64,000 nucleotides of DNA, taken from Eledone cirrhosa (Eukaryota). Location of the stretch: the NCBI GenBank assembly GCA_964016885.1, contig OZ024740.1, positions 226,238,001 through 226,302,000 on the forward strand, in the 5' to 3' direction. The position numbers and the translations under genes were made by a program. This document shows positions 151 through 53,063 of this stretch, piece after piece (within the stretch, counting starts at the first letter, position 1; each line of letters opens with the position of its first letter). The notes below the pieces were generated by a model, which worked only from the letters and a program-made list of their open reading frames with translations, was not told the DNA's origin and made no database searches.

Positions 151-215
<65 letters not shown>

Positions 216-267
216 GCTACTGTACGTCTATATACATATATGTATGTACGTATACATACATACTTAC

Positions 268-338
<71 letters not shown>
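130..338. repeat. Interrupted (TA)n microsatellite
   Basis: Directly visible; abuts the left end of the 310-bp array. Confidence 0.95.
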
Positions 339-345
<7 letters not shown>

Positions 346-3300
346 TTGGAATAAATGCTCTGAAATAGCGATATATATGTGAATATAGACATAGAATATT
401 CGAAAATATTCTGTATGTTTATAATAAACATTTTGAAGACCTAATCGCTATAGAATAGAATACGTCACGTATTACAATTAGATTCTCGATAAAAGCAAGG
501 GAAGTAATCTACGCGTTTCATTCTTGTTAGAAATCATCAGGACTACATATCCAGTGCTTTTATCGAGAATGACACAGCTAGAGACTTATAGAATACTTAG
601 CTGTGTACAGGAACTGGTTTGAAAGAGCGGTTGCCGGTCCGGCAGAAATTAGAAATTGGAATAAATGCTCTGAAATAGCGATATATATGTGAATATAGAC
701 ATAGAATATTCGAAAATATTCTGTATGTTTATAATAAACATTTTGAAGACCTAATCGCTATAGAATAGAATACGTCACGTATTACAATTAGATTCTCGAT
801 AAAAGCAAGGGAAGTAATCTACGCGTTTCATTCTTGTTAGAAATCATCAGGACTACATATCCAGTGCTTTTATCGAGAATGACACAGCTAGAGACTTATA
901 GAATACTTAGCTGTGTACAGGAACTGGTTTGAAAGAGCGGTTGCCGGTCCGGCAGAAATTAGAAATTGGAATAAATGCTCTGAAATAGCGATATATATGT
1001 GAATATAGACATAGAATATTCGAAAATATTCTGTATGTTTATAATAAACATTTTGAAGACCTAATCGCTATAGAATAGAATACGTCACGTATTACAATTA
1101 GATTCTCGATAAAAGCAAGGGAAGTAATCTACGCGTTTCATTCTTGTTAGAAATCATCAGGACTACATATCCAGTGCTTTTATCGAGAATGACACAGCTA
1201 GAGACTTATAGAATACTTAGCTGTGTACAGGAACTGGTTTGAAAGAGCGGTTGCCGGTCCGGCAGAAATTAGAAATTGGAATAAATGCTCTGAAATAGCG
1301 ATATATATGTGAATATAGACATAGAATATTCGAAAATATTCTGTATGTTTATAATAAACATTTTGAAGACCTAATCGCTATAGAATAGAATACGTCACGT
1401 ATTACAATTAGATTCTCGATAAAAGCAAGGGAAGTAATCTACGCGTTTCATTCTTGTTAGAAATCATCAGGACTACATATCCAGTGCTTTTATCGAGAAT
1501 GACACAGCTAGAGACTTATAGAATACTTAGCTGTGTACAGGAACTGGTTTGAAAGAGCGGTTGCCGGTCCGGCAGAAATTAGAAATTGGAATAAATGCTC
1601 TGAAATAGCGATATATATGTGAATATAGACATAGAATATTCGAAAATATTCTGTATGTTTATAATAAACATTTTGAAGACCTAATCGCTATAGAATAGAA
1701 TACGTCACGTATTACAATTAGATTCTCGATAAAAGCAAGGGAAGTAATCTACGCGTTTCATTCTTGTTAGAAATCATCAGGACTACATATCCAGTGCTTT
1801 TATCGAGAATGACACAGCTAGAGACTTATAGAATACTTAGCTGTGTACAGGAACTGGTTTGAAAGAGCGGTTGCCGGTCCGGCAGAAATTAGAAATTGGA
1901 ATAAATGCTCTGAAATAGCGATATATATGTGAATATAGACATAGAATATTCGAAAATATTCTGTATGTTTATAATAAACATTTTGAAGACCTAATCGCTA
2001 TAGAATAGAATACGTCACGTATTACAATTAGATTCTCGATAAAAGCAAGGGAAGTAATCTACGCGTTTCATTCTTGTTAGAAATCATCAGGACTACATAT
2101 CCAGTGCTTTTATCGAGAATGACACAGCAAGAGACTTATAGAATACTTAGCTGTGTACAGGAACTGGTTTGAAAGAGCGGTTGCCGGTCCGGCAGAAATT
2201 AGAAATTGGAATAAATGCTCTGAAATAGCGATATATATGTGAATATAGACATAGAATATTCGAAAATATTCTGTATGTTTATAATAAACATTTTGAAGAC
2301 CTAATCGCTATAGAATAGAATACGTCACGTATTACAATTAGATTCTCGATAAAAGCAAGGGAAGTAATCTACGCGTTTCATTCTTGTTAGAAATCATCAG
2401 GACTACATATCCAGTGCTTTTATCGAGAATGACACAGCTAGAGACTTATAGAATACTTAGCTGTGTACAGGAACTGGTTTGAAAGAGCGGTTGCCGGTCC
2501 GGCAGAAATTAGAAATTGGAATAAATGCTCTGAAATAGCGATATATATGTGAATATAGACATAGAATATTCGAAAATATTCTGTATGTTTATAATAAACA
2601 TTTTGAAGACCTAATCGCTATAGAATAGAATACGTCACGTATTACAATTAGATTCTCGATAAAAGCAAGGGAAGTAATCTACGCGTTTCATTCTTGTTAG
2701 AAATCATCAGGACTACATATCCAGTGCTTTTATCGAGAATGACACAGCTAGAGACTTATAGAATACTTAGCTGTGTACAGGAACTGGTTTGAAAGAGCGG
2801 TTGCCGGTCCGGCAGAAATTAGAAATTGGAATAAATGCTCTGAAATAGCGATATATATGTGAATATAGACATAGAATATTCGAAAATATTCTGTATGTTT
2901 ATAATAAACATTTTGAAGACCTAATCGCTATAGAATAGAATACGTCACGTATTACAATTAGATTCTCGATAAAAGCAAGGGAAGTAATCTACGCGTTTCA
3001 TTCTTGTTAGAAATCATCAGGACTACATATCCAGTGCTTTTATCGAGAATGACACAGCTAGAGACTTATAGAATACTTAGCTGTGTACAGGAACTGGTTT
3101 GAAAGAGCGGTTGCCGGTCCGGCAGAAATTAGAAATTGGAATAAATGCTCTGAAATAGCGATATATATGTGAATATAGACATAGAATATTCGAAAATATT
3201 CTGTATGTTTATAATAAACATTTTGAAGACCTAATCGCTATAGAATAGAATACGTCACGTATTACAATTAGATTCTCGATAAAAGCAAGGGAAGTAATCT

Positions 3301-3819
3301 ACGCGTTTCATTCTTGTTAGAAATCATCAGGACTACATATCCAGTGCTTTTATCGAGAATGACACAGCTAGAGACTTATAGAATACTTAGCTGTGTACAG
3401 GAACTGGTTTGAAAGAGCGGTTGCCGGTCCGGCAGAAATTAGAAATTGGAATAAATGCTCTGAAATAGCGATATATATGTGAATATAGACATAGAATATT
3501 CGAAAATATTCTGTATGTTTATAATAAACATTTTGAAGACCTAATCGCTATAGAATAGAATACGTCACGTATTACAATTAGATTCTCGATAAAAGCAAGG
3601 GAAGTAATCTACGCGTTTCATTCTTGTTAGAAATCATCAGGACTACATATCCAGTGCTTTTATCGAGAATGACACAGCTAGAGACTTATAGAATACTTAG
3701 CTGTGTACAGGAACTGGTTTGAAAGAGCGGTTGCCGGTCCGGCAGAAATTAGAAATTGGAATAAATGCTCTGAAATAGCGATATATATGTGAATATAGAC
3801 ATAGAATATTCGAAAATAT
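339..3819 (-). repeat. Left arm: 11 full + 1 partial copy of the 310-bp unit (ribozyme-sense on the minus strand)
   Basis: AGAAATTGGA recurs at 341, 651, 961 ... 3751. One variant seen (T>A at 2129). Confidence 0.98.
482..570 (-). ncRNA. Type I hammerhead ribozyme, first of 11 copies in the left arm (every 310 bp up to 3582-3670)
   Basis: Reverse complement of the motif at 4020-4108. Confidence 0.85.
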
Positions 3820-3838
3820 CTTCAAAATGTCTATTATA

Positions 3839-6800
3839 GGTCTTCAAAATGTTTATTATAAACATACAGAATATTTTCGAATATTCTATGTCTATATTCA
3901 CATATATATCGCTATTTCAGAGCATTTATTCCAATTTCTAATTTCTGCCGGACCGGCAACCGCTCTTTCAAACCAGTTCCTGTACACAGCTAAGTATTCT
4001 ATAAGTCTCTAGCTGTGTCATTCTCGATAAAAGCACTGGATATGTAGTCCTGATGATTTCTAACAAGAATGAAACGCGTAGATTACTTCCCTTGCTTTTA
4101 TCGAGAATCTAATTGTAATACGTGACGTATTCTATTCTATAGCGATTAGGTCTTCAAAATGTTTATTATAAACATACAGAATATTTTCGAATATTCTATG
4201 TCTATATTCACATATATATCGCTATTTCAGAGCATTTATTCCAATTTCTAATTTCTGCCGGACCGGCAACCGCTCTTTCAAACCAGTTCCTGTACACAGC
4301 TAAGTATTCTATAAGTCTCTAGCTGTGTCATTCTCGATAAAAGCACTGGATATGTAGTCCTGATGATTTCTAACAAGAATGAAACGCGTAGATTACTTCC
4401 CTTGCTTTTATCGAGAATCTAATTGTAATACGTGACGTATTCTATTCTATAGCGATTAGGTCTTCAAAATGTTTATTATAAACATACAGAATATTTTCGA
4501 ATATTCTATGTCTATATTCACATATATATCGCTATTTCAGAGCATTTATTCCAATTTCTAATTTCTGCCGGACCGGCAACCGCTCTTTCAAACCAGTTCC
4601 TGTACACAGCTAAGTATTCTATAAGTCTCTAGCTGTGTCATTCTCGATAAAAGCACTGGATATGTAGTCCTGATGATTTCTAACAAGAATGAAACGCGTA
4701 GATTACTTCCCTTGCTTTTATCGAGAATCTAATTGTAATACGTGACGTATTCTATTCTATAGCGATTAGGTCTTCAAAATGTTTATTATAAACATACAGA
4801 ATATTTTCGAATATTCTATGTCTATATTCACATATATATCGCTATTTCAGAGCATTTATTCCAATTTCTAATTTCTGCCGGACCGGCAACCGCTCTTTCA
4901 AACCAGTTCCTGTACACAGCTAAGTATTCTATAAGTCTCTAGCTGTGTCATTCTCGATAAAAGCACTGGATATGTAGTCCTGATGATTTCTAACAAGAAT
5001 GAAACGCGTAGATTACTTCCCTTGCTTTTATCGAGAATCTAATTGTAATACGTGACGTATTCTATTCTATAGCGATTAGGTCTTCAAAATGTTTATTATA
5101 AACATACAGAATATTTTCGAATATTCTATGTCTATATTCACATATATATCGCTATTTCAGAGCATTTATTCCAATTTCTAATTTCTGCCGGACCGGCAAC
5201 CGCTCTTTCAAACCAGTTCCTGTACACAGCTAAGTATTCTATAAGTCTCTAGCTGTGTCATTCTCGATAAAAGCACTGGATATGTAGTCCTGATGATTTC
5301 TAACAAGAATGAAACGCGTAGATTACTTCCCTTGCTTTTATCGAGAATCTAATTGTAATACGTGACGTATTCTATTCTATAGCGATTAGGTCTTCAAAAT
5401 GTTTATTATAAACATACAGAATATTTTCGAATATTCTATGTCTATATTCACATATATATCGCTATTTCAGAGCATTTATTCCAATTTCTAATTTCTGCCG
5501 GACCGGCAACCGCTCTTTCAAACCAGTTCCTGTACACAGCTAAGTATTCTATAAGTCTCTAGCTGTGTCATTCTCGATAAAAGCACTGGATATGTAGTCC
5601 TGATGATTTCTAACAAGAATGAAACGCGTAGATTACTTCCCTTGCTTTTATCGAGAATCTAATTGTAATACGTGACGTATTCTATTCTATAGCGATTAGG
5701 TCTTCAAAATGTTTATTATAAACATACAGAATATTTTCGAATATTCTATGTCTATATTCACATATATATCGCTATTTCAGAGCATTTATTCCAATTTCTA
5801 ATTTCTGCCGGACCGGCAACCGCTCTTTCAAACCAGTTCCTGTACACAGCTAAGTATTCTATAAGTCTCTAGCTGTGTCATTCTCGATAAAAGCACTGGA
5901 TATGTAGTCCTGATGATTTCTAACAAGAATGAAACGCGTAGATTACTTCCCTTGCTTTTATCGAGAATCTAATTGTAATACGTGACGTATTCTATTCTAT
6001 AGCGATTAGGTCTTCAAAATGTTTATTATAAACATACAGAATATTTTCGAATATTCTATGTCTATATTCACATATATATCGCTATTTCAGAGCATGTATT
6101 CCAATTTCTAATTTCTGCCGGACCGGCAACCGCTCTTTCAAACCAGTTCCTGTACACAGCTAAGTATTCTATAAGTCTCTAGCTGTGTCATTCTCGATAA
6201 AAGCACTGGATATGTAGTCCTGATGATTTCTAACAAGAATGAAACGCGTAGATTACTTCCCTTGCTTTTATCGAGAATCTAATTGTAATACGTGACGTAT
6301 TCTATTCTATAGCGATTAGGTCTTCAAAATGTTTATTATAAACATACAGAATATTTTCGAATATTCTATGTCTATATTCACATATATATCGCTATTTCAG
6401 AGCATTTATTCCAATTTCTAATTTCTGCCGGACCGGCAACCGCTCTTTCAAACCAGTTCCTGTACACAGCTAAGTATTCTATAAGTCTCTAGCTGTGTCA
6501 TTCTCGATAAAAGCACTGGATATGTAGTCCTGATGATTTCTAACAAGAATGAAACGCGTAGATTACTTCCCTTGCTTTTATCGAGAATCTAATTGTAATA
6601 CGTGACGTATTCTATTCTATAGCGATTAGGTCTTCAAAATGTTTATTATAAACATACAGAATATTTTCGAATATTCTATGTCTATATTCACATATATATC
6701 GCTATTTCAGAGCATTTATTCCAATTTCTAATTTCTGCCGGACCGGCAACCGCTCTTTCAAACCAGTTCCTGTACACAGCTAAGTATTCTATAAGTCTCT

Positions 6801-8236
6801 AGCTGTGTCATTCTCGATAAAAGCACTGGATATGTAGTCCTGATGATTTCTAACAAGAATGAAACGCGTAGATTACTTCCCTTGCTTTTATCGAGAATCT
6901 AATTGTAATACGTGACGTATTCTATTCTATAGCGATTAGGTCTTCAAAATGTTTATTATAAACATACAGAATATTTTCGAATATTCTATGTCTATATTCA
7001 CATATATATCGCTATTTCAGAGCATTTATTCCAATTTCTAATTTCTGCCGGACCGGCAACCGCTCTTTCAAACCAGTTCCTGTACACAGCTAAGTATTCT
7101 ATAAGTCTCTAGCTGTGTCATTCTCGATAAAAGCACTGGATATGTAGTCCTGATGATTTCTAACAAGAATGAAACGCGTAGATTACTTCCCTTGCTTTTA
7201 TCGAGAATCTAATTGTAATACGTGACGTATTCTATTCTATAGCGATTAGGTCTTCAAAATGTTTATTATAAACATACAGAATATTTTCGAATATTCTATG
7301 TCTATATTCACATATATATCGCTATTTCAGAGCATTTATTCCAATTTCTAATTTCTGCCGGACCGGCAACCGCTCTTTCAAACCAGTTCCTGTACACAGC
7401 TAAGTATTCTATAAGTCTCTAGCTGTGTCATTCTCGATAAAAGCACTGGATATGTAGTCCTGATGATTTCTAACAAGAATGAAACGCGTAGATTACTTCC
7501 CTTGCTTTTATCGAGAATCTAATTGTAATACGTGACGTATTCTATTCTATAGCGATTAGGTCTTCAAAATGTTTATTATAAACATACAGAATATTTTCGA
7601 ATATTCTATGTCTATATTCACATATATATCGCTATTTCAGAGCATTTATTCCAATTTCTAATTTCTGCCGGACCGGCAACCGCTCTTTCAAACCAGTTCC
7701 TGTACACAGCTAAGTATTCTATAAGTCTCTAGCTGTGTCATTCTCGATAAAAGCACTGGATATGTAGTCCTGATGATTTCTAACAAGAATGAAACGCGTA
7801 GATTACTTCCCTTGCTTTTATCGAGAATCTAATTGTAATACGTGACGTATTCTATTCTATAGCGATTAGGTCTTCAAAATGTTTATTATAAACATACAGA
7901 ATATTTTCGAATATTCTATGTCTATATTCACATATATATCGCTATTTCAGAGCATTTATTCCAATTTCTAATTTCTGCCGGACCGGCAACCGCTCTTTCA
8001 AACCAGTTCCTGTACACAGCTAAGTATTCTATAAGTCTCTAGCTGTGTCATTCTCGATAAAAGCACTGGATATGTAGTCCTGATGATTTCTAACAAGAAT
8101 GAAACGCGTAGATTACTTCCCTTGCTTTTATCGAGAATCTAATTGTAATACGTGACGTATTCTATTCTATAGCGATTAGGTCTTCAAAATGTTTATTATA
8201 AACATACAGAATATTTTCGAATATTCTATGTCTATA

Positions 8237-8240
<4 letters not shown>
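3839..8240 (+). repeat. Right arm: 14 full + 1 partial copy of the same unit in reverse complement (ribozyme-sense on the plus strand)
   Basis: TCTTCAAAAT recurs at 3841, 4151 ... 8181. One variant seen (T>G at 6096). Confidence 0.98.
4020..4108 (+). ncRNA. Type I hammerhead ribozyme, first of 14 copies in the right arm (every 310 bp up to 8050-8138)
   Basis: Helix I GUAGUC (4044-4049)/GAUUAC (4081-4086); core CUGAUGA (4050-4056); helix II UUCU-AACA-AGAA closed by U.U; GAAAC (4071-4075); palindromic helix III ACGCGU; cleavage triplet GUA, cut after 4080. Helix I is extended by a perfect 16-bp stem AUUCUCGAUAAAAGCA/UGCUUUUAUCGAGAAU. Confidence 0.87.

Positions 8241-8288
<48 letters not shown>
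8241..8288. repeat. (TA)n microsatellite
   Basis: Directly visible, between the array and the transposon TIR. Confidence 0.95.
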
Positions 8289-8291
<3 letters not shown>

Positions 8292-9597
8292 GGTGTGGAC
8301 GATATTTGTTCGCAGTTTTCAACTACTAATTCTATGAGAATTTTTTTTACTTCCGTTGTCACTCTTGTCTTCATAAAACAGTAACTATATTTCCCTTATT
8401 TATTTTCAGAATAATTGATTATGAATAATTTTGAACCTCCAAATTTGTGGATGAGACACGGAGTTCTTATTGGAATCCACCCCGGGAGGACAAATAAGGA
8501 CATTTCAGACTTTCTCAGCGTCGGCAGGAGAATGGTGTAAAAGGTCAGAAAGGAATTAGAAGATTCAGGATTCGACTACGAAGCAACATCAGAAAGGAAA
8601 ACACATGATCGACGATCTGACGCCTTCATAATGCCCGAGTTCGTCGCTGAAGTTCATGATATCATCAACAATGAACCTATAAAGTCGATGCGTGCCATTG
8701 CAAGCGAGAAAGACGTAGATGAAAAGCTCATTAGGCTGGTGGTTCATGAAGACATTCGCTACGTTTCATACAAGATGGGGAAAGAACAATTTCTTCCGAA
8801 GGCGATGCAAGAAAAGCGACTGAATCACGCACAGAAGCCGATCAACAAGTTGAAACACCCACTGGAGCCAGACAAGCTGTGGTTTTTCTCCGACGAGAAA
8901 AACTTCTGCCAAGACCAGAAGGTCAACTCCCAGAACAACAGGTGGCTCGCTGTCTCATCCAAAGACGTGCCCAGAGTCATGCAGATAAACTTTCCAGCGG
9001 CAACATTGGTCTTAGGTGTCGTCAGCAGTCAAGGTGACGTGATGCCACCTCACTTCTTCCCTGAGGGCCTCAAGCTGAAAACTGATGGCTACATCCGCGT
9101 TCTGAGTGAGGTAGTAAAGCCCTGGATCAACGAGGTAGCTGCAGGTAGGCCGTACGTGTGGCAGCAAGACTCAGCGCCCTGCCATACCAGCCGAAAAACC
9201 CAAGCCTGGCTGTCAGAGAACTTGGTCGACCACACTTCACCTGACATCTGGCCTCCCAGCTTGCCTGACTGCAACCCCCCCCCCCGACTTCTTTGTGTGG
9301 GGCGCAGTGGACGAGACACCAACAAATCTAGCTGCAATACGAAAGACGATCTGAAGGCCAGGATTACAAGTGCCTTTAGGGGCCTAAGTCGGGGGACAGT
9401 GACGAAGGCCTGTAGCCGGTTCCGAGGCCGCCTTGAGGCCGTCATCAAAGCCAATGGTGGGTTTATCGAGTGAGATCGAAAGAACAAGTCATGAAGTCAA
9501 ATTGACCCAAGTTTGATAAATATATCTTAAAAAATAAAACTACTGTGTTATTTTTTCATAGACAGTAATCTTGTGAACAAATATCGTCCGCACCCTG
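8289..9597 (+). mobile_element. Tc1/mariner superfamily DD37D (maT-type) DNA transposon, full length
   Basis: TIRs CAGGGTG(T/C)GGACGATATTTGTTC at 8289 and ending at 9597, TA on both sides, about 1.3 kb, internal transposase. Confidence 0.92.
8421..9473 (+). pseudogene. DD37D transposase, disrupted
   Basis: Motifs FFSDEKNF, WQQDSAPCH, WPPSLPDCNP. The ATG at 8421 is in frame but interrupted by TAA at 8538-8540. An 11-C run near 9275-9285 shifts the third Asp (D-FFVWG) out of frame. The reconstructed D2-D3 spacing is 37 aa. Confidence 0.88.
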
Positions 9598-10367: not shown

Positions 10368-12175
10368 ATCATCATCATCATCATCATTTTACGTCCGCTT
10401 TTCCCTGCTTGCAAGGGTGGGACGGGTCTTATTCAGCACAGCATCTCTTCACTCGTCACGGTCCCTCGTCATCTCCACCGTGAGCTTCAATGATCTGAGG
10501 TCTGTTCTCACCACCTCCGCCCATGTTTTTCGTGGTCTACCTCTACCACGTCTTCCTTCAACTGGCATTTCCTGGCACTTCTTCACCCATCGGTCATCCT
10601 CCATGCGCATCACATGTCCATACCACTTCAGTCTCCTCTCCCGTACACTACACTCTATCCCTCTCAGACACAGTTTCTCTCTCAACACATTTATGCTGGG
10701 TCGTTCACCACATTTACACTGCACGTCCAACGGAGCATGCTTGCCTCATTTCTCTCCAGCCGTCGCATATCCTCTGCAGTTGCTGCCCATGTCTCACTAC
10801 CATGCAGCATCGCGCTCCTCACACAGGCATCATACAACCAGCCTTTCTTACGCAGGGAGAAACCCTTCTTCGTCAACAGAGGAAGCAGCTCCCTAAACTT
10901 CTTCCAACCCGTCCTTATTCTAGATACTATGGCCTCGGAACACCCTCCTCCCATGCTAATCTGATCTCATAGGTACCGGAAGCTATCCACCACTTCTATA
11001 GCGCCCTCTTGCATTTGAAAAATGTGTCTATCAGTGTGACGTCTACTGTCTAATTTACCTGTACATCTACTGCATACATATTTCTCCCTACCTGTTAGTT
11101 TGCCTGCTATCCCGCTACATCTCTTGTGTACCCAGGATCTGCATTGTGTGCATTTTATAGAATTTATGCCAGTTCCTTTTCTGCATATCGAACATGGCCA
11201 TTTCCCTGAAGGAATCAGGGTTTTGTCCTCTTTTCTACTCATCAACACTTTTGTCTTAGCTAGATTCACTCTCAGTCCTCTTGCTTCCAACTGCTGTTTC
11301 CATAGCCAGAATTTATTCTCTAGCTCCTCTACTGATTCTGCTATAAGAACCAGATCGTCAGCATAGAGAAGTTCCTATGGACAGCCAGTCTTAAACTCCT
11401 CTGTTATGGCTTGGAGGACTATAATGAACAAGAGCGGGCTGAGGACCGAGGCCTGATGTACTCCTACTTGTATCTGGAATTCCTCACTAAACTCCATTCC
11501 TACCCTGACTTTACTGAGAGTACCTCTGTACAAAGTTTGCACTGTCCTCACAAGCCATTCCTCAACACCTAGCTTCCTTAGGGACCACCAGATGACAGAT
11601 CGGGGTACCCTATCAAAGGCCTTCTCTAGGTCAACAAAGGCTAAGTATAGTGGCTTATTCTTCTCTAAGAACCTCTCTTGCATTTGTCTCACCAAGAAGA
11701 GGGCATCTGTTGTACTCTTCCCAGGCACAAAACCAAACTGCATCTCATCTAGTTTGACCCTTTCTCTAATTAGTTGTGCTAAAATCCTTTCTGCCACTTT
11801 CATAACCTGATCTATCAGTTTTATACCCCTATAATTGCTCCTCTCCAAAGCATCCCCTTTACCTTTGTAGCAATTTATGAGAATACTGCTGCACCAGTCT
11901 TTGGGTATGACACCACCATATATAGCCTGATTGATGATGCATGCAACCAGTTTAGTGCCTACGTCCCCTGATGCCTTCAGCATCTCAGCAACTATTCCCG
12001 ATGGTCCGGCCGCCTTACCATTTTTCATTTCCCTAATCGCCTCTTGGACCCTATATTCGTCAATCTCAATAGCTGGTCCCTCTGTCGGATCTACCAAGGG
12101 TAATTTCTCTCTCTCCCATTCGTTCTCCACATTCATCAGTCTCTCATACTGACATTTCCAGGCCTCCTTTTTCAT
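10368..12175 (-). mobile_element. RTE-clade LINE, 5'-truncated, with disrupted RT and PHD finger
   Basis: RT motifs YRGIKL, QFGFVPGKST, FVDLEKAFDRV, GVHQASVLSPLLF, YADDL. Cys4-His-Cys3 segment in ORF 10967-11290. C-terminal RLKWYGHVMRM...RGRGRPRKTW. (GAT)n 3' tail. Premature stop at 11375. Confidence 0.93.
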
Positions 12176-17084: not shown

Positions 17085-17578
17085 ATCATCATCATCATAC
17101 GTCCATTTATCTATGTTAGCATGGATTAGACAAGTTCTAGGTCAGGTGACCATGTCTTGTTCATACAGAATTAATTTTGTTGTGGGTAATGCTAGGTCAG
17201 ATGACCATGTCTTGTTCATACAGATTTAATTTTAACCTTGTTTCTACAGCTGGATGCCCTTCCTAATGCCAACCTAATTTACATTGAGTACTGGGTGCAT
17301 TTTGTCGTGACATCTACATGACCACTTTACAGTGTGGACTGGGTGCTTTTTGTCGTGACACCTACACAACCACTTTATAGTGTGGACTGGGTGCTTTTTG
17401 TCGTGACACCTACATGACCACTTTATAGTGTGGACTGGGTGCTTTTTGTCGTGACACCTACACAACCACTTTACAGTGTGGACTGGGTGCTTTTTGTCGT
17501 GACACCTACACAACCACTTTATAGTGTGGACTGGGTGCTTTTTGTCGTGACACCTACATGACCACTTTACAGTGTGGG
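17085..17578 (-). mobile_element. RTE/SINE 3' tail containing about 6 tandem 48-bp units
   Basis: (CAT)n at about 17086, GGATGCCCTTCCTAA motif, 48-bp unit CCACTTTAYAGTGTGGACTGGGTGCTTTTTGTCGTGACACCTACA repeated at 17280-17578. Confidence 0.75.
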
Positions 17579-18358: not shown

Positions 18359-18578
18359 GGGTGGTGGATTGGCAGTATCGGGAGAGAGTTGGATCCCATG
18401 CTTTGCAGCATAAAGTTACGGTCCTTTACAGTCTGAGTTCAAATCCCGCCGAGGTTTACTTTGCCTTTCATCCTTACGGGATCGATAAAATAAAGCACCA
18501 GTAATGTAGTGGGGTCGATTTAATCGACTTTCACCGTACCCCAAATTACTGGTTTGTGCCTATACTAGAAATCATTAT
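18359..18578 (+). mobile_element. tRNA-derived SINE (GCCTTTCATCCTT...GATAAA central domain)
   Basis: B-box GAGTTCAAATCC. Flanking direct repeat of about 15 bp, ATTATT(T)TATGCACA (TSD). Same family as 32289. Confidence 0.75.
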
Positions 18579-20046: not shown

Positions 20047-23000
20047 AGGCACATGGCTTAGTTTTTAGAGCATTGGGCTTGCAATCGAAAGGTTGTGAGT
20101 TCAATTGTCTTGAGCAAGACACTTTATTTCACATTGCTCCAGTTTACTCAGCTGTAGAAATGAGATGATAGGACTGGGGTCCCTATCATTCCACTGCAAA
20201 GTGGTCGTGGAGGTGCCACAGAAAAAAAGCACCCAGCCCAAACTGCAAAGTGGTCATGGAGGTGCCACGACAAGAAAGCACCCAGCCCACACTGTAAAGT
20301 GGACATGTAGGCGCCACGGCAAAAAAGCACCCAGCCCACACTGTAAAGTGGATGTGTAGGCGCCACGGCAAAAAAACACCCAGCCCACACTGTAAAGTGG
20401 ATGTGTAGGTGCCACGGCAAAAAAGCACCCAGCCCACACTGTAAAGTGGATGTGTAGGTGCCACGGCAAGAAAGCACCCAGCCCACACTGCAAAGTGGAT
20501 GTGTAGTTGCCACGGAAAAAAGGACCCAGCCCACACTGTAAAGTGGATGTGTAGGTACCACGGAAAAAAAGCACCCAGCCCACACTGTAAAGTGGATGTG
20601 TAGGCGCCACGACAAGAAAGCACCCAGCCCACACTGCAAAGTGGATGTGTAGTTGCCATGGAAAAAAAAGCACCCAGCCCACACTGCAAAGTGGATGTGT
20701 AGGTACCACGGAAAAAAAGCACCCAGCCCACACTGTAAAGTGGATGTGTAGGTACCACGGAAAAAAAGCACCCAGCCCACACTGTAAAGTGGATGTGTAG
20801 GCGCCACGGCAAAAAAGCACCCAGCCCACACTGTAAAGTGGATGTGTAGGCGCCAGGGCAAAAAAGCACCCAGCCCACACTGTAAAGTGGATGTGTAGGT
20901 GCCACGGAAAAAAAGCACCCAGCCCACACTGTAAAGTGGATGTGTAGGCGCCACGGCAAAAAAGCACCCAGCCCACACTGTAAGGTGGATGTGTAGGCGC
21001 CACGGCAAAAAAGCACCCAGCCCACACTGTAAAGTGGATGTGTAGGTACCACGGAAAAAAAGCACCCAGCCCACACTGTAAAGTGGATGTGTAGTTGCCA
21101 TGGAAAAAAAAGCACCCAGCCCACACTGTAAAGTGGATGTGTAGGTACCACGGCAAAAAAGCACCCAGCCCACACTGCAAAGTGGATGTGTAGGCGCCAG
21201 GGCAAAAAAGCACCCAGCCCACACTGTAAAGTGGATGTGTAGGTGCCACGGAAAAAAAGCACCCAGCCCACACTGTAAAGTGGATGTGTAGGCGCCACGG
21301 CAAAAAAGCACCCAGCCCACACTGTAAGGTGGATGTGTAGGCGCCACGGCAAAAAAGCACCCAGCCCACACTGTAAAGTGGATGTGTAGGTACCACGGAA
21401 AAAAAGCACCCAGCCCACACTGTAAAGTGGATGTGTAGTTGCCATGGAAAAAAAAGCACCCAGCCCACACTGTAAAGTGGATGTGTAGGTACCACGGCAA
21501 AAAAGCACCCAGCCCACACTGCAAAGTGGATGTGTAGGCGCCAGGGCAAAAAAGCACCCAGCCCACACTGTAAAGTGGATGTGTAGGTGCCACGGCAAAA
21601 AAGCACCCAGCCCACACTGTAAAGTGGATGTGTAGGTGCCACGGAAAAAAAGCACCCAGCCCACACTGTAAAGTGGATGTGTAGGCGCCACGGCAAAAAA
21701 GCACCCAGCCCACACTGTAAAGTGGATGTGTAGGCGCCAGGGCAAAAAAGCACCCAGCCCACACTGTAAAGTGGATGTGTAGGTGCCACGGAAAAAAAGC
21801 ACCCAGCCCACACTGTAAAGTGGATGTGTAGGCGCCACGGCAAAAAAGCACCCAGCCCACACTGTAAGGTGGATGTGTAGGCGCCACGGCAAAAAAGCAC
21901 CCAGCCCACACTGCAAAGTGGATGTGTAGGTGCCACGGAAAAAAAGCACCCAGCCCACACTGCAAAGTGGATGTGTAGGTGCCACGGAAAAAAAGCACCC
22001 AGCCCACACTGTAAAGTGGATGTGTAGGCGCCACGGCAAAAAAGCACCCAGCCCACACTGTAAAGTGGATGTGTAGGTGCCACGGCAAAAAAGCACCCAG
22101 CCCACACTGTAAAGTGGATGTGTAGTTGCCATGGAAAAAAAAGCACCCAGCCCACACTGTAAAGTGGATGTGTAGGCGCCACGGCAAAAAAGCACCCAGC
22201 CCACACTGTAAAGTGGATGTGTAGGTACCATGGAAAAAAAGCACCCAGCCCACACTGTAAAGTGGATGTGTAGGTACCACGGCAAAAAAGCACCCAGCCC
22301 ACACTGTAAAGTGGATGTGTAGGTACCACGGAAAAAAAGCACCCAGCCCACACTGTAAAGTGGATGTGTAGGCGCCACGGCAAAAAAGCACCCAGCCCAC
22401 ACTTTAAAGTGGATGTGTAGGCGCCAGGGCAAAAAAGCACCCAGCCCACACTGTAAAGTGGATGTGTAGGCGCCACGGCAAAAAAGCACCCAGCCCACAC
22501 TGTAAAGTGGATGTGTAGGCGCCACGACAAAAAAGCACCCAGCCCACACTGTAAAGTGGATGTGTAGGTACCACGGCAAAAAAAGCACCCAGCCCACACT
22601 GCAAAGTGGATGTGTAGGCGTCACGGCAAAAAAGCACCCAGCCCACACTGTAAAGTGGATGTGTAGGCGCCACGGCAAAAAAGCACCCAGCCCACACTGT
22701 AAAGTGGATGTGTAGGCGCCACGGCAAAAAAGCACCCAGCCCACACTGTAAAGTGGATGTGTAGGCGCCACGGCAAAAAAGCACCCAGCCCACACTGTAA
22801 AGTGGATGTGTAGGCGCCACGGAAAAAAAGCACCCAGCCCACACTGTAAAGTGGATGTGTAGGCGCCACGACAAAAAAGCACCCAGACCACACTGTAAAG
22901 TGGATGTGTAGGTACCACGGCAAAAAAAGCACCCAGCCCACACTGTAAAGTGGATGTGTAGGCGCCACGACAAAAAAGCACCCAGCCCACACTGTAAAGT

Positions 23001-23493
23001 GGATGTGTAGGCGCCACGGCAAAAAAGCACCCAGCCCACACTGTAAAGTGGATGTGTAGGCGCCACGGCAAAAAAGCACCCAGCCCACACTGTAAAGTGG
23101 ATGTGTAGGCGCCACGGCAAAAAAGCACCCAGCCCACACTGTAAAGTGGATGTGTAGGCGCCACGGCAAAAAAGCACCCAGCCCACACTGCACAAAAAAG
23201 CACCCAGCCCACACTGCACAAAAAAGCACCCAGCCCACACTGCACAAAAAAGCACCCAGCCCACACTGCAAAGTGGATGTGGAGGTGCCACAGAAAAAAA
23301 GCACCCAGCACTCACTGTAAATGAGGTTGGTGTTAGGAAGGGCATCAAGCTGTTGAAATCAAGCCAGAATCAGTTCCCGTATTAGCAAGACAAGGTCAGC
23401 CGACCGGACACTGCCCACAACAGGACAACCCGTCTAACCCATGCTAGCATGGAAGAACGGACGTAAAACGGTGATGATGATGATGATGATGAT
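20047..23493 (+). mobile_element. CORE-type SINE with RTE tail, internally expanded by a 49-bp array
   Basis: Head 20047-20190 matches the SINE at 52720. Tail with (GAT)n at 23320-23493. Confidence 0.85.
20190..23320. repeat. 49-bp tandem repeat, about 60-65 copies
   Basis: Unit CACCCAGCCCACACTGTAAAGTGGATGTGTAGGCGCCACGGCAAAAAAG. Three shortened units of about 29 bp at 23170-23260. Confidence 0.97.
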
Positions 23494-24394: not shown

Positions 24395-24890
24395 GTATGT
24401 GTATGTACATGTATGTGTATATATATGTATATAATAACCACCAACAGATTCCTCTTAGCTATATACATATATCATCACAAAGTGCACACCACTGTGAAAG
24501 GAACCACAAACCGCCAACACTAAAAACATCTCCATGACAAGCACAGATTGTCTCCACCTCATTTGTATATCACCACTAACACCAGTAGACAGCCAAGTCG
24601 TAAACACCAACCTCACACACTGCAGCTATACAACACACAACCACTACATACTATATACTAACACTACACCTTATGCATTAACACTACATCCTATGCACTA
24701 ACACTACATCCAATACACTATCAGTACCTCCTATACATTAACACTACCACAACGGTTACATACTATGCCTTACACACTGCCACTATCGTTAAACACTACT
24801 ACTACACCCTCATCATTAACACTGCACACTACCACTGTCATTACCAGCAGCCCCACTACACACTACAACTAAAAACTATAACACTAGCAT

Positions 24891-27800
24891 TACACATTAC
24901 ACACTACCACTAAATTCAACCACAGTACCATTGCCACTACACGCTACCACTACATTCTACCACAGTACTATTGCCACTACATGCTACCACTACATTCTAC
25001 CACAGTACCATTGCCACTACACGCTACCACTACATTCTACCACAGTACCATTGCCACTACACGCTACCACTACATTCTACCACAGTACTATTGCCACTAC
25101 ATGCTACCACTACATTCTACCACAGTACCATTGCCACTACACGCTACCACTACATTCTACCACAGTACTATTGCCACTACACACTACCACTAAATTCTGC
25201 CACAGTACCATTGCCATTACACACTACCACTAAATTCAACCACAGTACCATTGCCACTACACGCTACCACTACATTCTACCACAGTACTATTGCCACTAC
25301 ACACTACCACTAAATTCTACCACAGTACCATTGCCATTACACACTACCACTACATTCTACCACAGTACTATTGCCACTACACACTACCACTAAATTCTAC
25401 CACAGTACCATTGCCATTACACACTACCACTACATTCTACCACAGTACCATTGCCACTACACGCTACCACTACATTCTACCACAGTACCATTGCCACTAC
25501 ACACTACCACTACATTCTACCACAGTACCATTGCCATTACACACTACCACTACATTCTACCACAGTACCATTGCCATTACACACTACCACTACATTCTAC
25601 CACAGTACTATTGCCATTACACACTACCACTACATTCTACCACAGTACCATTGCCACTACAGACTACCACTACATTCTACCACAGTACCATTGCCATTAC
25701 ACACTACCACTACATTCTACCACAGTACCATTGCCACTACACGCTACCACTACATTCTACCACAGTACCATTGCCATTACACACTACCACTACATTCTAC
25801 CACAGTACCATTGCCATTACACACTACCACTACATTCTACCACAGTACCATTGCCATTACACACTACCACTACATTCTACCACAGTACCATTGCCACTAC
25901 ACACTACCACTAAATTCTACCACAGTACCATTGCCACTACACACTACCACTACATTCTACCACAGTGCCATTGCCACTACACACTACCACTACATTCTAC
26001 CACAGTACCATTGCCACTACATGCTACCACTACATTCTACCACAGTACCATTGCCACTACACGCTACCACTACATTCTACCACAGTACCATTGCCACTAC
26101 ATGCTACCACTACATTCTACCACAGTACCATTGCCACTACATGCTACCACTACATTCTACCACAGTGCCATTGCCACTACACACTACCACTACATTCTAC
26201 CACAGTACCATTGCCACTACACACTACCACTACATTCTACCACAGTACCATTGCCACTACACACTACCACTACATTCTACCACAGTACCATTGCCATTAC
26301 ACACTACCACTAAATTCTACCACAGTACCATTGCCATTACACACTACCACTAAATTCTACCACAGTACCATTGCCACTACACACTACCACTACATTCTAC
26401 CACAGTGCCATTGCCACTACACACTACCACTACATTCTACCACAGTACCATTGCCACTACACACTACCACTACATTCTACCACAGTACCATTGCCATTAC
26501 ACCCTACCACTACATTCTACCACAGTACCATTGCCATTACACACTACCACTACATTCTACCACAGTACCATTGCCACTACACACTACCACTAAATTCTAC
26601 CACAGTACCATTGCCACTACACACTACCACTACATTCTACCACAGTGCCATTGCCACTACACACTACCACTACATTCTACCACAGTACCATTGCCACTAC
26701 ATGCTACCACTACATTCTACCACAGTACCATTGCCACTACACGCTACCACTACATTCTACCACAGTACCATTGCCACTACATGCTACCACTACATTCTAC
26801 CACAGTACCATTGCCACTACATGCTACCACTACATTCTACCACAGTGCCATTGCCACTACACACTACCACTACATTCTACCACAGTACCATTGCCACTAC
26901 ACACTACCACTACATTCTACCACAGTACCATTGCCACTACACACTACCACTACATTCTACCACAGTACCATTGCCATTACACACTACCACTAAATTCTAC
27001 CACAGTACCATTGCCATTACACACTACCACTAAATTCTACCACAGTACCATTGCCACTACACACTACCACTACATTCTACCACAGTGCCATTGCCACTAC
27101 ACACTACCACTACATTCTACCACAGTACCATTGCCACTACACACTACCACTACATTCTACCACAGTACCATTGCCATTACACCCTACCACTACATTCTAC
27201 CACAGTACCATTGCCATTACACACTACCACTACATTCTACCACAGTACCATTGCCACTACACACTACCACTACATTCTACCACAGTACCATTGCCACTAC
27301 ACGCTACCACTAAATTCTACCGCAGTACCATTGCCATTACACACTACCACTACATTCTACCACAGTGCCATTGCCACTACACACTACCACTACATTCTAC
27401 CACAGTACCATTGCCATTACACACTACCACTAAATTCTACCGCAGTACCATTGCCATTACACACTACCACTACATTCTACCACAGTACCATTGCCACTAC
27501 ACACTACCACTACATTCTACCACAGTACCATTGCCACTACACACTACCACTACATTCTACCACAGTGCCATTGCCACTACACACTACCACTACATTCTAC
27601 CACAGTACCATTGCCACTACACACTACCACTACATTCTACCACAGTGCCATTGCCACTACACACTACCACTACATTCTACCACAGTACCATTGCCATTAC
27701 ACACTACCACTACATTCTACCACAGTACCATTGCCACTACACACTACCACTACATTCTACCACAGTACCATTGCCATTACACACTACCACTACATTCTAC

Positions 27801-30800
27801 CACAGTACCATTGCCACTACACACTACCACTACATTCTACCACAGTACCATTGCCACTACACACTACCACTACATTCTACCACAGTACCATTGCCACTAC
27901 ACGCTACTACTACATTCTACCACAGTACTATTGCCACTACATGCTACCACTACATTCTACCACAGTACTATTGCCACTACACACTACCACTACATTCTAC
28001 CACAGTACCATTGCCACTACACACTACCACTACATTCTACCACAGTACCATTGACACTACACACTACCACTACATTCTACCACAGTACCATTGCCACTAC
28101 ACACTACCACTACATTCTACCACAGTACCATTGCCACTACACACTACCACTACATTCTACCACAGTACCATTACCACTACACACTACCACTACATTCTAC
28201 CACAGTACCATTGACACTACACACTACCACTACATTCTACCACAGTACCATTACCACTACACACTACCACTACATTCTACCACAGTACCATTGACACTAC
28301 ACACTACCACTACATTCTACCACAGTACCATTGCCACTACACACTACCACTACATTCTACCACAGTACCATTGCCACTACACACTACCACTACATTCTAC
28401 CACAGTACCATTGCCACTACACACTACCACTACATTCTACCACAGTACCATTGACACTACACACTACCACTACATTCTACCACAGTACCATTGCCACTAC
28501 ACACTACCACTACATTCTACCACAGTACCATTACCACTACACACTACCACTACATTCTACCACAGTACCATTGACACTACACACTACCACTACATTCTAC
28601 CACAGTACCATTACCACTACACACTACCACTACATTCTACCACAGTACCATTACCACTACACACTACCACTACATTCTACCACAGTACCATTGACACTAC
28701 ACACTACCACTACATTCTACCACAGTACCATTACCACTACACACTACCACTACATTCTACCACAGTACCATTGACACTACACACTACCACTACATTCTAC
28801 CACAGTACCATTGCCACTACACACTACCACTACATTCTACCACAGTACTATTGCCACTACACACTACCACAGTACCATTGCCACTACACACTACCACTAC
28901 ATTCTACCACAGTACCATTGCCACTACACACTACCACTACATTCTACCACAGTACCATTGACACTACACACTACCACTACATTCTACCACAGTACCATTG
29001 CCACTACACGCTACCACTACATTCTACCACAGTACCATTGACACTACACACTACCACTACATTCTACCACAGTACCATTGCCACTACACACTACCACTAC
29101 ATTCTACCACAGTACCATTGCCACTACACACTACCACTACATTCTACCACAGTACCATTGCCACTACACACTACCACTACATTCTACCACAGTGCCATTG
29201 CCACTACACACTACCACTACATTCTACCACAGTACTATTGCCACTACACACTACCACTACATTCTACCACAGTACCATTACCACTGCACACCACCACTAC
29301 ATTCTACCACAGTACCATTGACACTACACACTACCACTACATTCTACCACAGTACCATTGCCATTACACACTACCACTAAATTCTACCACAGTACCATTG
29401 CCACTACACGCTACCACTACATTCTACCACAGTACCATTGACACTACACACTACCACTACATTCTACCACAGTACCATTGCCACTACACACTACCACTAC
29501 ATTCTACCACAGTACCATTGCCACTACACACTACCACTACATTCTACCACAGTACCATTGCCACTACACACTACCACTACATTCTACCACAGTGCCATTG
29601 CCACTACACACTACCACTACATTCTACCACAGTACTATTGCCACTACACACTACCACTACATTCTACCACAGTACCATTACCACTGCACACCACCACTAC
29701 ATTCTACCACAGTACCATTGACACTACACACTACCACTACATTCTACCACAGTACCATTGCCATTACACACTACCACTACATTCTACCACAGTACCATTG
29801 CCACTACACACTACCACTACATTCTACCACAGTACCATTGCCACTACACACTACCACTACATTCTACCACAGTACTATTGCCACTACACACTACCACTAA
29901 ATTCAACCACAGTACCATTGCCACTACACACTACCACTACATTCTACCACAGTACTATTGCCACTACATGCTACCACAGTGCCATTGCCACTACACACTA
30001 CCACTACATTCTACCACAGTACCATTGCCACTACACACTACCACTACATTCTACCACAGTACCATTACCACTGCACACCACCACTACATTCTACCACAGT
30101 ACCATTGACACTACACACTACCACTACATTCTACCACAGTACCATTGCCATTACACACTACCACTACATTCTACCACAGTACCATTACCACTACACACTA
30201 CCACTACATTCTACCACAGTACCATTGCCACTACACACTACCACTACATTCTACCACAGTACTATTGCCACTACACACTACCACTACATTCTACCACAGT
30301 ACCATTACCACTACACACTACCACTACATTCTACCACAGTACCATTGCCACTACACGCTACCACTACATTCTACCACAGTACCATTGCCACTACACACTA
30401 CCACTACATTCTACCACAGTACCATTGCCACTACACACTACCACTACATTCTACCACAGTACTATTGCCACTACACACTACCACTAAATTCAACCACAGT
30501 ACCATTGCCACTACACACTACCACTACATTCTACCACAGTACTATTGCCACTACATGCTACCACAGTGCCATTGCCACTACACACTACCACTACATTCTA
30601 CCACAGTACTATTGCCACTACACACTACCACTACATTCTACCACAGTACCATTGCCATTACACACTACCACTACATTCTACCACAGTACCATTGCCATTA
30701 CACACTACCACTACATTCTACCACAGTACCATTGCCACTACACGCTACCACTACATTCTACCACAGTACCATTGCCATTACACACTACCACTACATTCTA

Positions 30801-31560
30801 CCACAGTACCATTGCCATTACACACTACCACTACATTCTACCACAGTACCATTGCCATTACACACTACCACTACATTCTACCACAGTACCATTACCACTA
30901 CACACTACCACTACATTCTACCACAGTACCATTGCCATTACACACTACCACAGTACCATTGCCACTACACACTACCACTACATTCTACCACAGTACCATT
31001 GCCACTACACACTACCACAGTACCATTGCCACTACACACTACCACAGTACCATTGCCACTACACACTACCACAGTACCATTGCCACTACACACTACCACT
31101 ACATTCTACCACAGTACCATTGCCACTACACACTACCACAGTACCATTGCCACTACACACTACCACAGTACCATTGCCACTACACACTACCACTACATTC
31201 TACCACAGTACCATTGCCACTACACACTACCACAGTACCATTGCCACTACACACTACCACTACATTCTACCACAGTACCATTGCCACTACACACTACCAC
31301 TACATTCTACCACAGTACCATTGCCACTACACACTACCACAGTACCATTGCCACTACACACTACCACTACATTCTACCACAGTACCATTGACACTACACA
31401 CTACCACAGTACCATTGCCACTACACACTACCACTACATTCTACCACAGTACCATTGCCACTACACACTACCACTACATTCTACCACAGTACCATTGCCA
31501 CTACACACTACCACTACATTCTACCATAGTACCATTACCACTGCACACCACCACTACACC
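24891..31560. repeat. 40-bp minisatellite, about 165-170 copies, with 27-bp deletion variants distally
   Basis: Unit ACACTACCACTACATTCTACCACAGTACCATTGCCACTAC. Confidence 0.98.
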
Positions 31561-52719: not shown

Positions 52720-53063
52720 GGAGGCACATGGCTTAGTGGTTAGAGCATTGGCCTTGCAATCGAAAGGTTGTGAGTTCAATTCTCAGACTGGGTGATGTGT
52801 TGTTTCCTTGAGCAAGATACTTTATTTCACATTGCTCCAGTTTACTCAGCTGTAGAAATGAAATGATAGGGACCCAGTCCCTATCATTCCACTGCAAAGT
52901 GGTCGTGGAGGTGCCACGGCAAAAAAGCACCCAGCACTCACTGTAAATGAGGTTAGTGTTAGGAAGGGCATCCAACTGTAGAAATCAAGCCAGAATCAGT
53001 TCCTGTCCCACCCTTGTAAGCAGGGAAAAAGCGGACGTAAAATGAAATGATGATGATGATGAT
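52720..53063 (+). mobile_element. CORE-type SINE with RTE tail (unexpanded sibling of 20047-23493)
   Basis: A/B boxes, CORE-like segment, one copy of the 49-bp unit, tail nearly identical to the RTE end at 10368-10425. Confidence 0.85.

Follow-up and report, generated by a model that had tools for sequence, protein, structure and literature searches.

What kind of element leaves a 310-bp unit in tandem on both strands of one locus, and how do the two arrays come to stand head to head? We addressed this question for a window of 64,000 nt (the whole stretch of DNA analysed) from Eledone cirrhosa, in which a sequence-only reading had proposed a hammerhead retrozyme, that is, a viroid-like circular RNA encoded as about 25 genomic tandem copies.

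The locus is one two-armed insertion

TRF returned a period of 310 in two blocks, one of 11.2 copies (338-3819) and one of 14.2 (3837-8249), with 99% matches, and 21 of the 23 cut-to-cut units are identical, the remaining two differing by one substitution each; the proposed unit length thus holds. Likewise recovered were the claimed strand counts, with 14 hammerhead cores on the plus strand (4050...8110) and 11 on the minus strand (3640...510). The reference monomer, from whose first nucleotide (4081) unit positions are counted, has 34% G+C and no ORF, its longest stop-free frame spanning 59 codons, as the sequence-only reading had it. While the copy number of about 25 stands, the notion of a single array does not: the copies form one two-armed insertion among ~2,000, with Penelope-like ends that had been missed (Table 1). 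A Tc1 frame neighbours the locus, and the haemocyanin of the host identifies it as a cephalopod.

The arms begin and end at different unit positions. Arm B runs from unit position 101 at its 5' end to position 172 at its 3' end (the long end, with the 'tail'), where it enters (TA)n at 338. Arm A runs from position 67 to position 130, the latter being ambiguous to 139 because a short TA run of the unit matches the target there. The junction insert probably represents an imperfect re-copy of unit positions ~72-88 via a template slip.

Table 1 Features of the retrozyme locus (window coordinates).
Feature	Position	Strand	Details
Left (TA)n target microsatellite	151..337	.	
Arm B	338..3819	-	11.2 units, sense on minus
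Head-to-head junction	3820..3836	+	17-nt insert
Arm A	3837..8240	+	14.2 units
Right (TA)n target microsatellite	8241..8288	.	
Extended stem	4020..4108	+	16 perfect bp, 4020-4035 with 4093-4108
Type I hammerhead, first plus unit	4044..4086	+	helix I 4044-4049/4081-4086; CUGAUGA 4050-4056; helix II 4058-4061/4066-4069, U.U 4057/4070 at its base; GAAA 4071-4074; helix III 4074-4079, palindromic; predicted cut after A4080 (GUA)
Reference cut-to-cut monomer	4081..4390	+	310 nt
Putative internal RT start sites A (130-139) and B (165-172), with the tail between	4210..4252	+	unit 130-172

Each unit carries a type I hammerhead

The motif is present as the sequence-only reading wrote it, with a CUGANGA...GAAA...UH core, three helices and an open helix I. 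Its description as 'complete' is overstated, given that helix III has no more than 2 bp, closing a palindromic loop of 2 nt, and that a U.U replaces G10.1-C11.1 at the base of helix II. Because of these two features the predicted fold is the dimer form, and a stretch with two ribozymes indeed has the double hammerhead as its minimum-energy fold (z -7.1). Similarly, the 16-bp stem said to extend helix I is perfect, but two internal loops and a 3-bp helix intervene.

In a search against Rfam, the check proposed earlier, nothing in the window reached the gathering score of a hammerhead family; Hammerhead_1 was not listed, and the top score, 19.2 bits (E 0.045), went to Hammerhead_HH9, which has a cut-off of 52. 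Rfam matches to Fluoride and MIR8562 were discarded as chance. The hammerhead itself is not a chance motif, since the circular unit folds at -67.8 kcal/mol as compared to -46.6 +/- 3.6 in 100 shuffles, and its 43-nt core occurs 4,177 times in exact form across the genome, against none for the reversed control. As the core pattern is confined to a single polarity of the unit, 'viroid-like' may describe a small hammerhead unit, but not in the sense of self-replication. We infer that the unit RNA is cleaved into 310-nt pieces and circularised.

A young family with an older relative

The family is dispersed and multi-copy, with 18,359 cores genome-wide, 1,242 exact A ends and 776 B ends in forward orientation (the usable figure, the reverse count of 2,971 being inflated by overlapping matches). 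Its ~2,000 two-armed insertions are near-identical, diverging by 0.05%, and the family is very young and non-autonomous. Tandem 310-bp units, a ribozyme in each, 34% G+C and no ORF are the hallmarks of non-LTR retrozymes. In each of runs X1, X3 and X6, from three organisms, a single contig of 340 nt is identical to the unit (depth 10-15), as expected from a circle or a collapsed array alike; these contigs were left out of the evidence.

A second family (family B), 65-68% identical to the unit, had been considered as a PLE end; this was rejected, and it turned out to be an older, homologous retrozyme. Its helix I and its outer stem both show double changes, four of them in the extended stem of Table 1, and its helix II is a different one, while RNAalifold on 11 family-B copies recovered outer stem, helix I and helix II. 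The helix covariation that the sequence-only reading asked for is therefore found, as pairing-preserving double changes in family B, and none of the 30 fixed substitutions of the young family breaks pairing or core. Such structure-preserving variation, the compensatory changes in the older family and the insertion anatomy described below bear out the assignment to non-LTR retrozymes with a type I hammerhead, and to an RNA-level element as opposed to a plain satellite.

Insertions resemble those of Penelope-like elements

Two arms were resolved at 73 of 93 sampled loci. All 73 are divergent, head to head, and pair one A end (unit position 130-139) with one B end (165-172), each in (TA)n; A/A, B/B or convergent arm pairs numbered zero among them. 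The same held in two subsets not selected as pairs: 10/10 resolved loci were divergent A/B among 13 picked by the core, as were 30/30 among 40 picked by the A end, where five more were single-armed and five extended beyond the stretch. Every closed 3' end (163/163) enters a TA-type repeat. A target-site duplication is unreadable owing to (TA)n on both flanks. An inverted copy, a one-sided tail, a microsatellite target and 5' truncation are found together, and judging from this anatomy, two-armed, fixed-end insertions into (TA)n are the signature of Penelope-like elements (PLEs).

With respect to a possible source of enzyme, the genome contains PLEs with open RT+GIY-YIG frames (938, 844 and 1,096 codons), and the search for an autonomous partner found three Neptune-like PLE groups (CX4CxxC linker) that have hammerheads of their own. 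No nucleotide sequence or pLTR homology to the unit was found among 36 GIY-YIG loci (150 scored of 10,595 candidates); the best 3'-region likeness, at the PLE locus L110, was equalled by 15/300 shuffles. L110 is itself a divergent palindrome with arms 99.7% alike; its ends, which lie in (TA)n, are unequal, at ~123 and 150+ nt beyond a hammerhead which, as in the retrozyme unit, has a U.U at the base of helix II.

A probably borrowed reverse transcriptase and its template

On balance, we consider it probable that the retrozyme, being non-autonomous, borrows a PLE RT-GIY-YIG protein, which would start cDNA synthesis at two places on the same RNA molecule, in most cases a monomer circle, and copy it in rolling fashion. 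An array would be transcribed, and neighbouring hammerheads are modelled to pair via the palindromic helix III as a double hammerhead, releasing 310-nt monomers. These would be ligated into circles, as by RtcB in other animals (PMC7229834). A PLE protein, probably a dimer, would then nick both strands of a (TA)n run and prime cDNA at two internal sites 30-40 nt apart, the A and B ends lying on opposite strands. Both RTs would copy the one RNA—presumably the circle—repeatedly and stop at random, which fits the tandem arms, their shared haplotype and their random 5' ends. Finally, the cDNA ends are joined by microhomology or a short insert, giving the head-to-head palindrome. A minority of insertions may stem from templates that were switched or spanned several units, and later expansion at the DNA level may affect some of the longest arms.

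The position of the starts bears on the template. They lie 130-172 nt downstream of the cut, so that a linear monomer yields at most 172 nt of cDNA; arms, in contrast, reach up to 27 units, and 161/171 cross the cut site, with only 2/163 5' ends falling within 5 nt of it. We count such arms in favour of a template other than the linear monomer. Haplotypes add to this: 34 were distinguished among 79 loci, each fixed along its array, and the two arms agree at 48/51 loci (chance 0.10 per pair), although the same agreement is expected if one donor locus dominates per germ cell. Against this stands locus L071, where the two arms start with unlike alleles at position 276. Arms of 9-19 units can consist throughout of a rare haplotype (L037, L034b, L062, L065 and L078), which requires copying from monomer to multimer.

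In a stronger form, which is possible though doubtful, an RT dimer, bound at two fixed sites with one for each nicked DNA strand, would make many turns on one covalently closed 310-nt RNA and the family would evolve at the RNA level, the ribozyme being selected in each cycle and A-to-I edits in stems of the circle being written into the germ line. A>G changes make up 9/30 fixed but 7/90 private substitutions (p 0.004), and 7/9 of the fixed ones fall in predicted stems. The change 276A>G (UAG context, helix I) is present in 850 copies, mixed within some arrays, and occurs on five haplotype backgrounds defined by sites merely 8-19 nt distant. The A>G excess over T>C among fixed changes (9 vs 4) is not significant (p 0.07), and the tolerance of A-U to G.U changes accounts for part of the A>G excess.

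Alternatively, two-site PLE priming may use an uncleaved linear read-through transcript of the donor array, any circles being a side product. At three loci (L081, L145, L158), ordered unit-private variants do occur in both arms at equal distance from the 3' start, a pattern not derivable from a monomer circle without a joint template switch. Slow cleavage is predicted from the weak helix III and the U.U; 8/9 Xenopus dimers remained uncleaved (bioRxiv 2026.07.22.740005), and hammerhead cleavage was dispensable for an Anolis PLE in vitro, which used mainly unprocessed RNA (PMC11167929), a finding that counts against the circle. However, the shared variants account for 12 of 74 testable private events, the other 62 not being common to both arms, and copying from a linear template can neither make an array longer nor carry a mutation of one unit over 10-19 units, as the array-wide haplotypes would demand. 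Substitutions breaking core or stem number 0/30 among fixed but 18/90 among private changes (Fisher p 0.006; 18.6% expected; distinct variants were counted, which are not fully independent), and this sequence variation indicates that the ribozyme core is under purifying selection among transmitted variants. We therefore regard an uncleaved template as unlikely.

Growth at the DNA level, whereby PLE retrotransposition would give a short birth of 1-2 units per arm and unequal crossing-over or slippage would do the rest, appears improbable. It would suit the 40/163 closed arms shorter than two units, as well as four long arms (L034b, L036, L055, L140) with private variants recurring at multi-unit periods; yet recurring private variants are confined to arms of at least 14.8 units (two chimeric loci apart), of the 96 private substitutions found where an arm has 3+ units, 83 sit in a single unit, and 51/103 arms have none. 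Moreover, an exponential describes the arm lengths well (mean 1,495 bp, KS p 0.20), and ~2,000 loci would need to have expanded before gaining 0.05% divergence.

Lastly, the view that the palindromes are assembly or read chimeras, or an ordinary satellite that DNA repair has rearranged and that owes its hammerhead-like motif to descent alone, is very improbable and already largely refuted: inverted tandem arrays assemble poorly and one sampled locus (L068) is duplicated next to a gap, but unequal A and B ends are fixed at 73 loci, variation preserves structure, and contigs of public run X2—possibly not independent of the assembly—contain TA loose ends and at least 15 minus-to-plus joints at differing places (depth 3-27; unit ~200,000).

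The two-armed insertions are a source of testable clues to how a borrowed RT handles a small RNA, probably a circle. Since 2014 (PMC4209133) and 2020 (PMC7229834), hypotheses have existed on the way in which animal retrozymes move and on an origin of tandem, inverted and tailed PLE insertions in circular RNA; ~2,000 near-identical insertions with haplotype tags and fixed ends render them testable by counting, and the 310-nt unit offers a substrate for in vitro work on PLE RT. The family also loads the genome with ~5.7 Mb (0.19%) of long perfect inverted repeat, likely a source of dsRNA and assembly error.

Comparison with known systems

The element belongs to a known class, and the insertion anatomy is its informative part. 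Animal non-LTR retrozymes of coral, mussel and axolotl were described in 2020 (Cervera & de la Pena, PMC7229834), where expression, cleavage and circles were shown. As given there, they share with our unit the type I hammerhead, tandem repeats of 150-450 bp, low G+C, lack of an ORF, a self-paired unit, thousands of copies and PLEs in the host genome. The U.U at the base of helix II recurs in HHR_Amex2, and the weak palindromic helix III with dimer dependence, here predicted from the fold, in HHR_Amex1. The main text of that study describes neither insertions with two arms nor fixed A/B ends nor targeting of (TA)n, and the words 'inverted', 'microsatellite', 'octopus' and 'cephalopod' are absent from it; our literature search found no report of a cephalopod retrozyme.

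Vertebrate retrozymes, with units of similar size, have been argued to be non-autonomous PLE derivatives, based on PLE co-occurrence and pLTR homology, with local DNA amplification favoured and 1/9 Xenopus dimers cleaved in vitro (Li, Clavereau, Pollet, bioRxiv 10.64898/2026.07.22.740005). Molluscs, tails and palindromes do not feature in that preprint, and here the link to PLEs is insertion anatomy, pLTR homology being absent among the 36 GIY-YIG loci.

EN+ PLEs of the Neptune/Naiad type leave an inverted 5'-truncated copy, a one-sided tail of 30-40 bp and a (TA)n bias (Craig et al. 2021, PMC8557442), while in Anolis Poseidon the RT starts at two internal sites, each strand being nicked and then extended (Frangieh et al. 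2024, PMC11167929). Our insertions share the head-to-head, inverted 5'-truncated copy, a tail of 30-40 bp that is confined to one end, targets of (TA)n or AT-rich sequence, a pair of putative internal RT starts that lie downstream of where the hammerhead cuts and, in the proposed model, nicking and extension of both strands. Unlike these PLEs, the retrozyme encodes no protein and repeats a 310-nt unit up to 27 times per arm, and it pairs one A with one B end strictly, whereas the Anolis starts were alike on both strands in vitro.

With viroids and plant LTR retrozymes the unit has in common that it is small, structured, non-coding and hammerhead-bearing; it differs from them in its one-polarity ribozyme, its genomic encoding, and the lack of LTR structure and of signs of RNA-to-RNA replication. 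In twin-primed LINE-1 insertions, priming on opposite target strands gives a head-to-head inversion joined by microhomology; such events concern a minority of LINE-1 insertions and combine priming at the poly(A) end with priming at an internal site that varies. In the retrozyme, by contrast, the two starts keep to fixed internal positions, and the majority of insertions have two arms.

The arrayed unit is a dispersed hammerhead retrozyme

The sequence-only reading had claimed tandem copies of a 310-bp unit, each with a type I hammerhead and without an open reading frame, and all three points stood up to analysis. The arrays are real, 21 of 23 cut-to-cut units are identical, and the longest open frame spans 59 codons. 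Both arrays are bounded outside by (TA)n runs, one on each side. Core and helices bear out the ribozyme in every unit: helix I runs to 6 bp and helix II to 4 bp over a U.U pair, helix III consists of two pairs that enclose a palindrome, and self-cleavage is predicted. For two neighbouring ribozymes, the minimum-energy fold is a double hammerhead with the palindromes paired together (-109.4 kcal/mol, z -7.1). Against Rfam, the unit hammerhead scores below gathering level in the window.

Comparison with homologues upheld the ribozyme. Family B, an older, decayed retrozyme with 528 exact anchor matches (~314-bp unit, 65-68% identical to the 310-bp unit), retains the core; its helices have changed but still pair, the predicted cut site is GUU and helix III is longer. 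It forms divergent pairs with the same short (A) and long (B) 3' ends as the 310-bp family.

We take this 3.0-Gb animal genome to be that of a cephalopod, since a haemocyanin unit reaches 497-503 bits against squid and octopus structures (PDB 6r83, 4yd9 and 1js8) and at most 385 against gastropod ones (3j32 and 8tnv). Compared across the genome, the unit proved to belong to a dispersed, young family: a 43-nt core matches exactly at 4,177 sites and its degenerate form at 18,359, the controls at none, and the A end followed by (TA)n gave 1,242 exact matches. From ~9 units per sampled locus we estimate ~2,000 insertions, possibly with haplotigs counted in. The element is a member of the non-LTR retrozymes, a class already known; PMC7229834 covers these, their circRNAs and RtcB ligation. 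The full-text literature (most subscription journals, Repbase and the PMC7229834 supplement lying outside it) yielded no cephalopod retrozyme.

Each unit also contains a small palindromic hairpin whose TGACGT core is CRE-like, a candidate internal promoter or protein site; family B has another hairpin at the equivalent place. A further hammerhead repeat with a 511-bp period, showing U.U at the helix II base, a palindromic helix III and a predicted GUA cut site, is probably a third retrozyme or a family of pLTRs, the terminal repeats borne by Penelope-like elements (PLEs). A short near-perfect palindrome adjoining (TA)n recurs at several unrelated loci; its arms contain a hammerhead-like core whose helix II nearly matches that of the 310-bp unit.

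Features of the window and of other fetched stretches of the same genome (L-numbers)
Feature	Location	Strand	Details
310-bp unit array	window 338-3819	minus	11.2 copies
310-bp unit array	window 3837-8240	plus	14.2 copies
CRE-like hairpin	window 4117-4132		unit 37-52, counted from predicted cut
Tc1/mariner-type element	window 8289-9473		transposase frame, 310 codons
LINE-type reverse transcriptase fragment	window 11375-12175	minus	266 codons
Minisatellite	window 17270-17577		48 bp
Minisatellite	window 20192-23190		49 bp, 61 copies
Minisatellite	window 24853-31558		40 bp, ~165 copies, extreme C/G skew
tRNA-like Rfam match	window 52727-52790		29.9 bits
Family B copies	L085:2436-2881, L120-L139
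511-bp-period hammerhead repeat	L115:9060-9620
~130-bp palindrome	L116:3198-3326, L114:8573-8705, L109:1683-1708
Insert between arms	L036:3099-3370		272 bp, G+C-rich
Switching arms	L158:300-1233, 1229-6701
Neptune-like PLE group 1 (L104 group)	L104, L105, L109, L113, L114, L117
Neptune-like PLE group 2 (L110 group)	L107, L108, L110, L112, L119
Neptune-like PLE group 3	L111, L116, L118, L085, L180-L183

The Tc1/mariner-type element lies immediately after the right (TA)n run, its open frame 75% to the nearest database matches. We take the LINE-type fragment to be RTE-like. The 48- and 49-bp minisatellite units are seemingly related, in opposite orientation, and the tRNA-like match, barely over cut-off, is probably the leading part of a SINE derived from a tRNA.

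Insertions are two-armed

We sampled 93 loci, every one on a single contig (C1): 13, including the window, chosen by core; 40 from end lists, a biased set because many were chosen as pairs; and 40 from the first 100 listed short ends, chosen blind to the opposite side. A duplicate locus (L068b) and a 129-bp internal fragment (L044) were left out before counting. Two resolved arms were present in 73 loci, in all 73 head to head with one A and one B end; in 5 more the second arm runs beyond the fetched stretch, and 15 showed a single arm (2 interrupted by a gap or stretch end). A arms terminate at unit position 130-139 and B arms at 165-172 (49 of 75 at 165), and all 163 closed 3' ends enter TA-type repeat. 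The 5' ends are scattered over the whole unit, with an excess in the first half (KS p 0.0002); 2 of 163 lie near the cut. Microhomology of 1-17 nt is present at 42 of the 78 arm junctions and an insert at 26; the other 10 are blunt. Contigs of a public run (X2) contain at least 15 minus-to-plus joints at low depth; such junctions therefore exist outside the long-range layout of this assembly. No two-armed retrozyme insertions appeared in the full-text literature, most subscription journals and Repbase lying outside it. One junction carries a foreign insert, possibly a template switch onto another RNA, with no second copy among the fetched loci.

Arms were copied from a circle or multimer

The putative starts of reverse transcription lie 130-172 nt downstream of the predicted cut. 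A linear monomer released there cannot explain the 161 of 171 arms that cross it, in the extreme 27 times; these must have been copied from either a circle or an uncleaved multimer. We lean towards the monomer circle as the main template because the 34 haplotypes among 79 loci are each fixed along their array and common to both arms (48 of 51 loci; chance 0.10), rare ones filling arms of 9-19 units; because arm lengths are exponential and private changes mostly confined to one unit; and because two distinct insertions are fixed directly adjoining the cut site. Arm agreement has three exceptions: a threshold effect explains L175, the two L158 arms switch identically, and L071 is left as the one true difference.

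An uncleaved multimer may instead have served: at L081, L145 and L158 (12 of 74 testable events), private variants occur in both arms at equal distance from the start. In each L158 arm the first two units belong to one haplotype and later units to another, reflecting either a chimeric linear donor or two reverse transcriptases switching template jointly. Circle and multimer routes may both be in use. Private variants repeated within four of the longest arms point to later DNA-level duplication.

Fixed variants spare the ribozyme

None of 30 fixed substitutions breaks core or stem, as against 18 of 90 private ones (p 0.006). Fixed changes fall at the free N7 position (twice) and in loop II (four); others turn U.U into A-U or exchange G.U pairs in helix I. 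A>G is over-represented among them, and 276A>G recurs on five haplotype backgrounds. Coleoids edit RNA heavily, and the pattern fits ADAR edits copied into DNA, which we offer as a lead only; wobble tolerance or recurrent reverse transcriptase error may also account for the excess.

Mobilisation probably resembles that of Penelope-like elements

This genome holds PLEs whose RT and GIY-YIG frames are open. One (L110) forms a young divergent palindrome with ends unequal as in the unit insertions, and its hammerhead has U.U at the helix II base; none of the PLEs compared here shares sequence with the unit. Three Neptune-like groups, with CX4CxxC preceding GIY-YIG, each carry a type I hammerhead of their own in the 3' repeat and end 120-190 nt beyond the cut, within (TA)n. 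L104-group hammerheads and the L085/L180 copies show a U3-A8 core swap, and the L110 group a swapped helix III pair with a predicted cut at CUU.

PLEs are proposed as candidate mobilisers of non-LTR retrozymes in PMC7229834, and PMC4209133 hypothesises PLE tandems from circle-templated, more-than-unit reverse transcription; a PLE origin of retrozymes is argued in bioRxiv 2026.07.22.740005. The PLE protein nicks and extends both strands, the tail being the stretch between two internal RT start sites (Frangieh 2024, PMC11167929). Mobilisation of the retrozyme by such two-site priming is, we believe, very likely. In Craig 2021 (PMC8557442), endonuclease-bearing PLEs leave an inverted 5'-truncated copy, a 30-40-bp tail at one end only and a (TA)n bias, and the unit insertions match this signature in their inverted truncated copy, one-sided tail and (TA)n.
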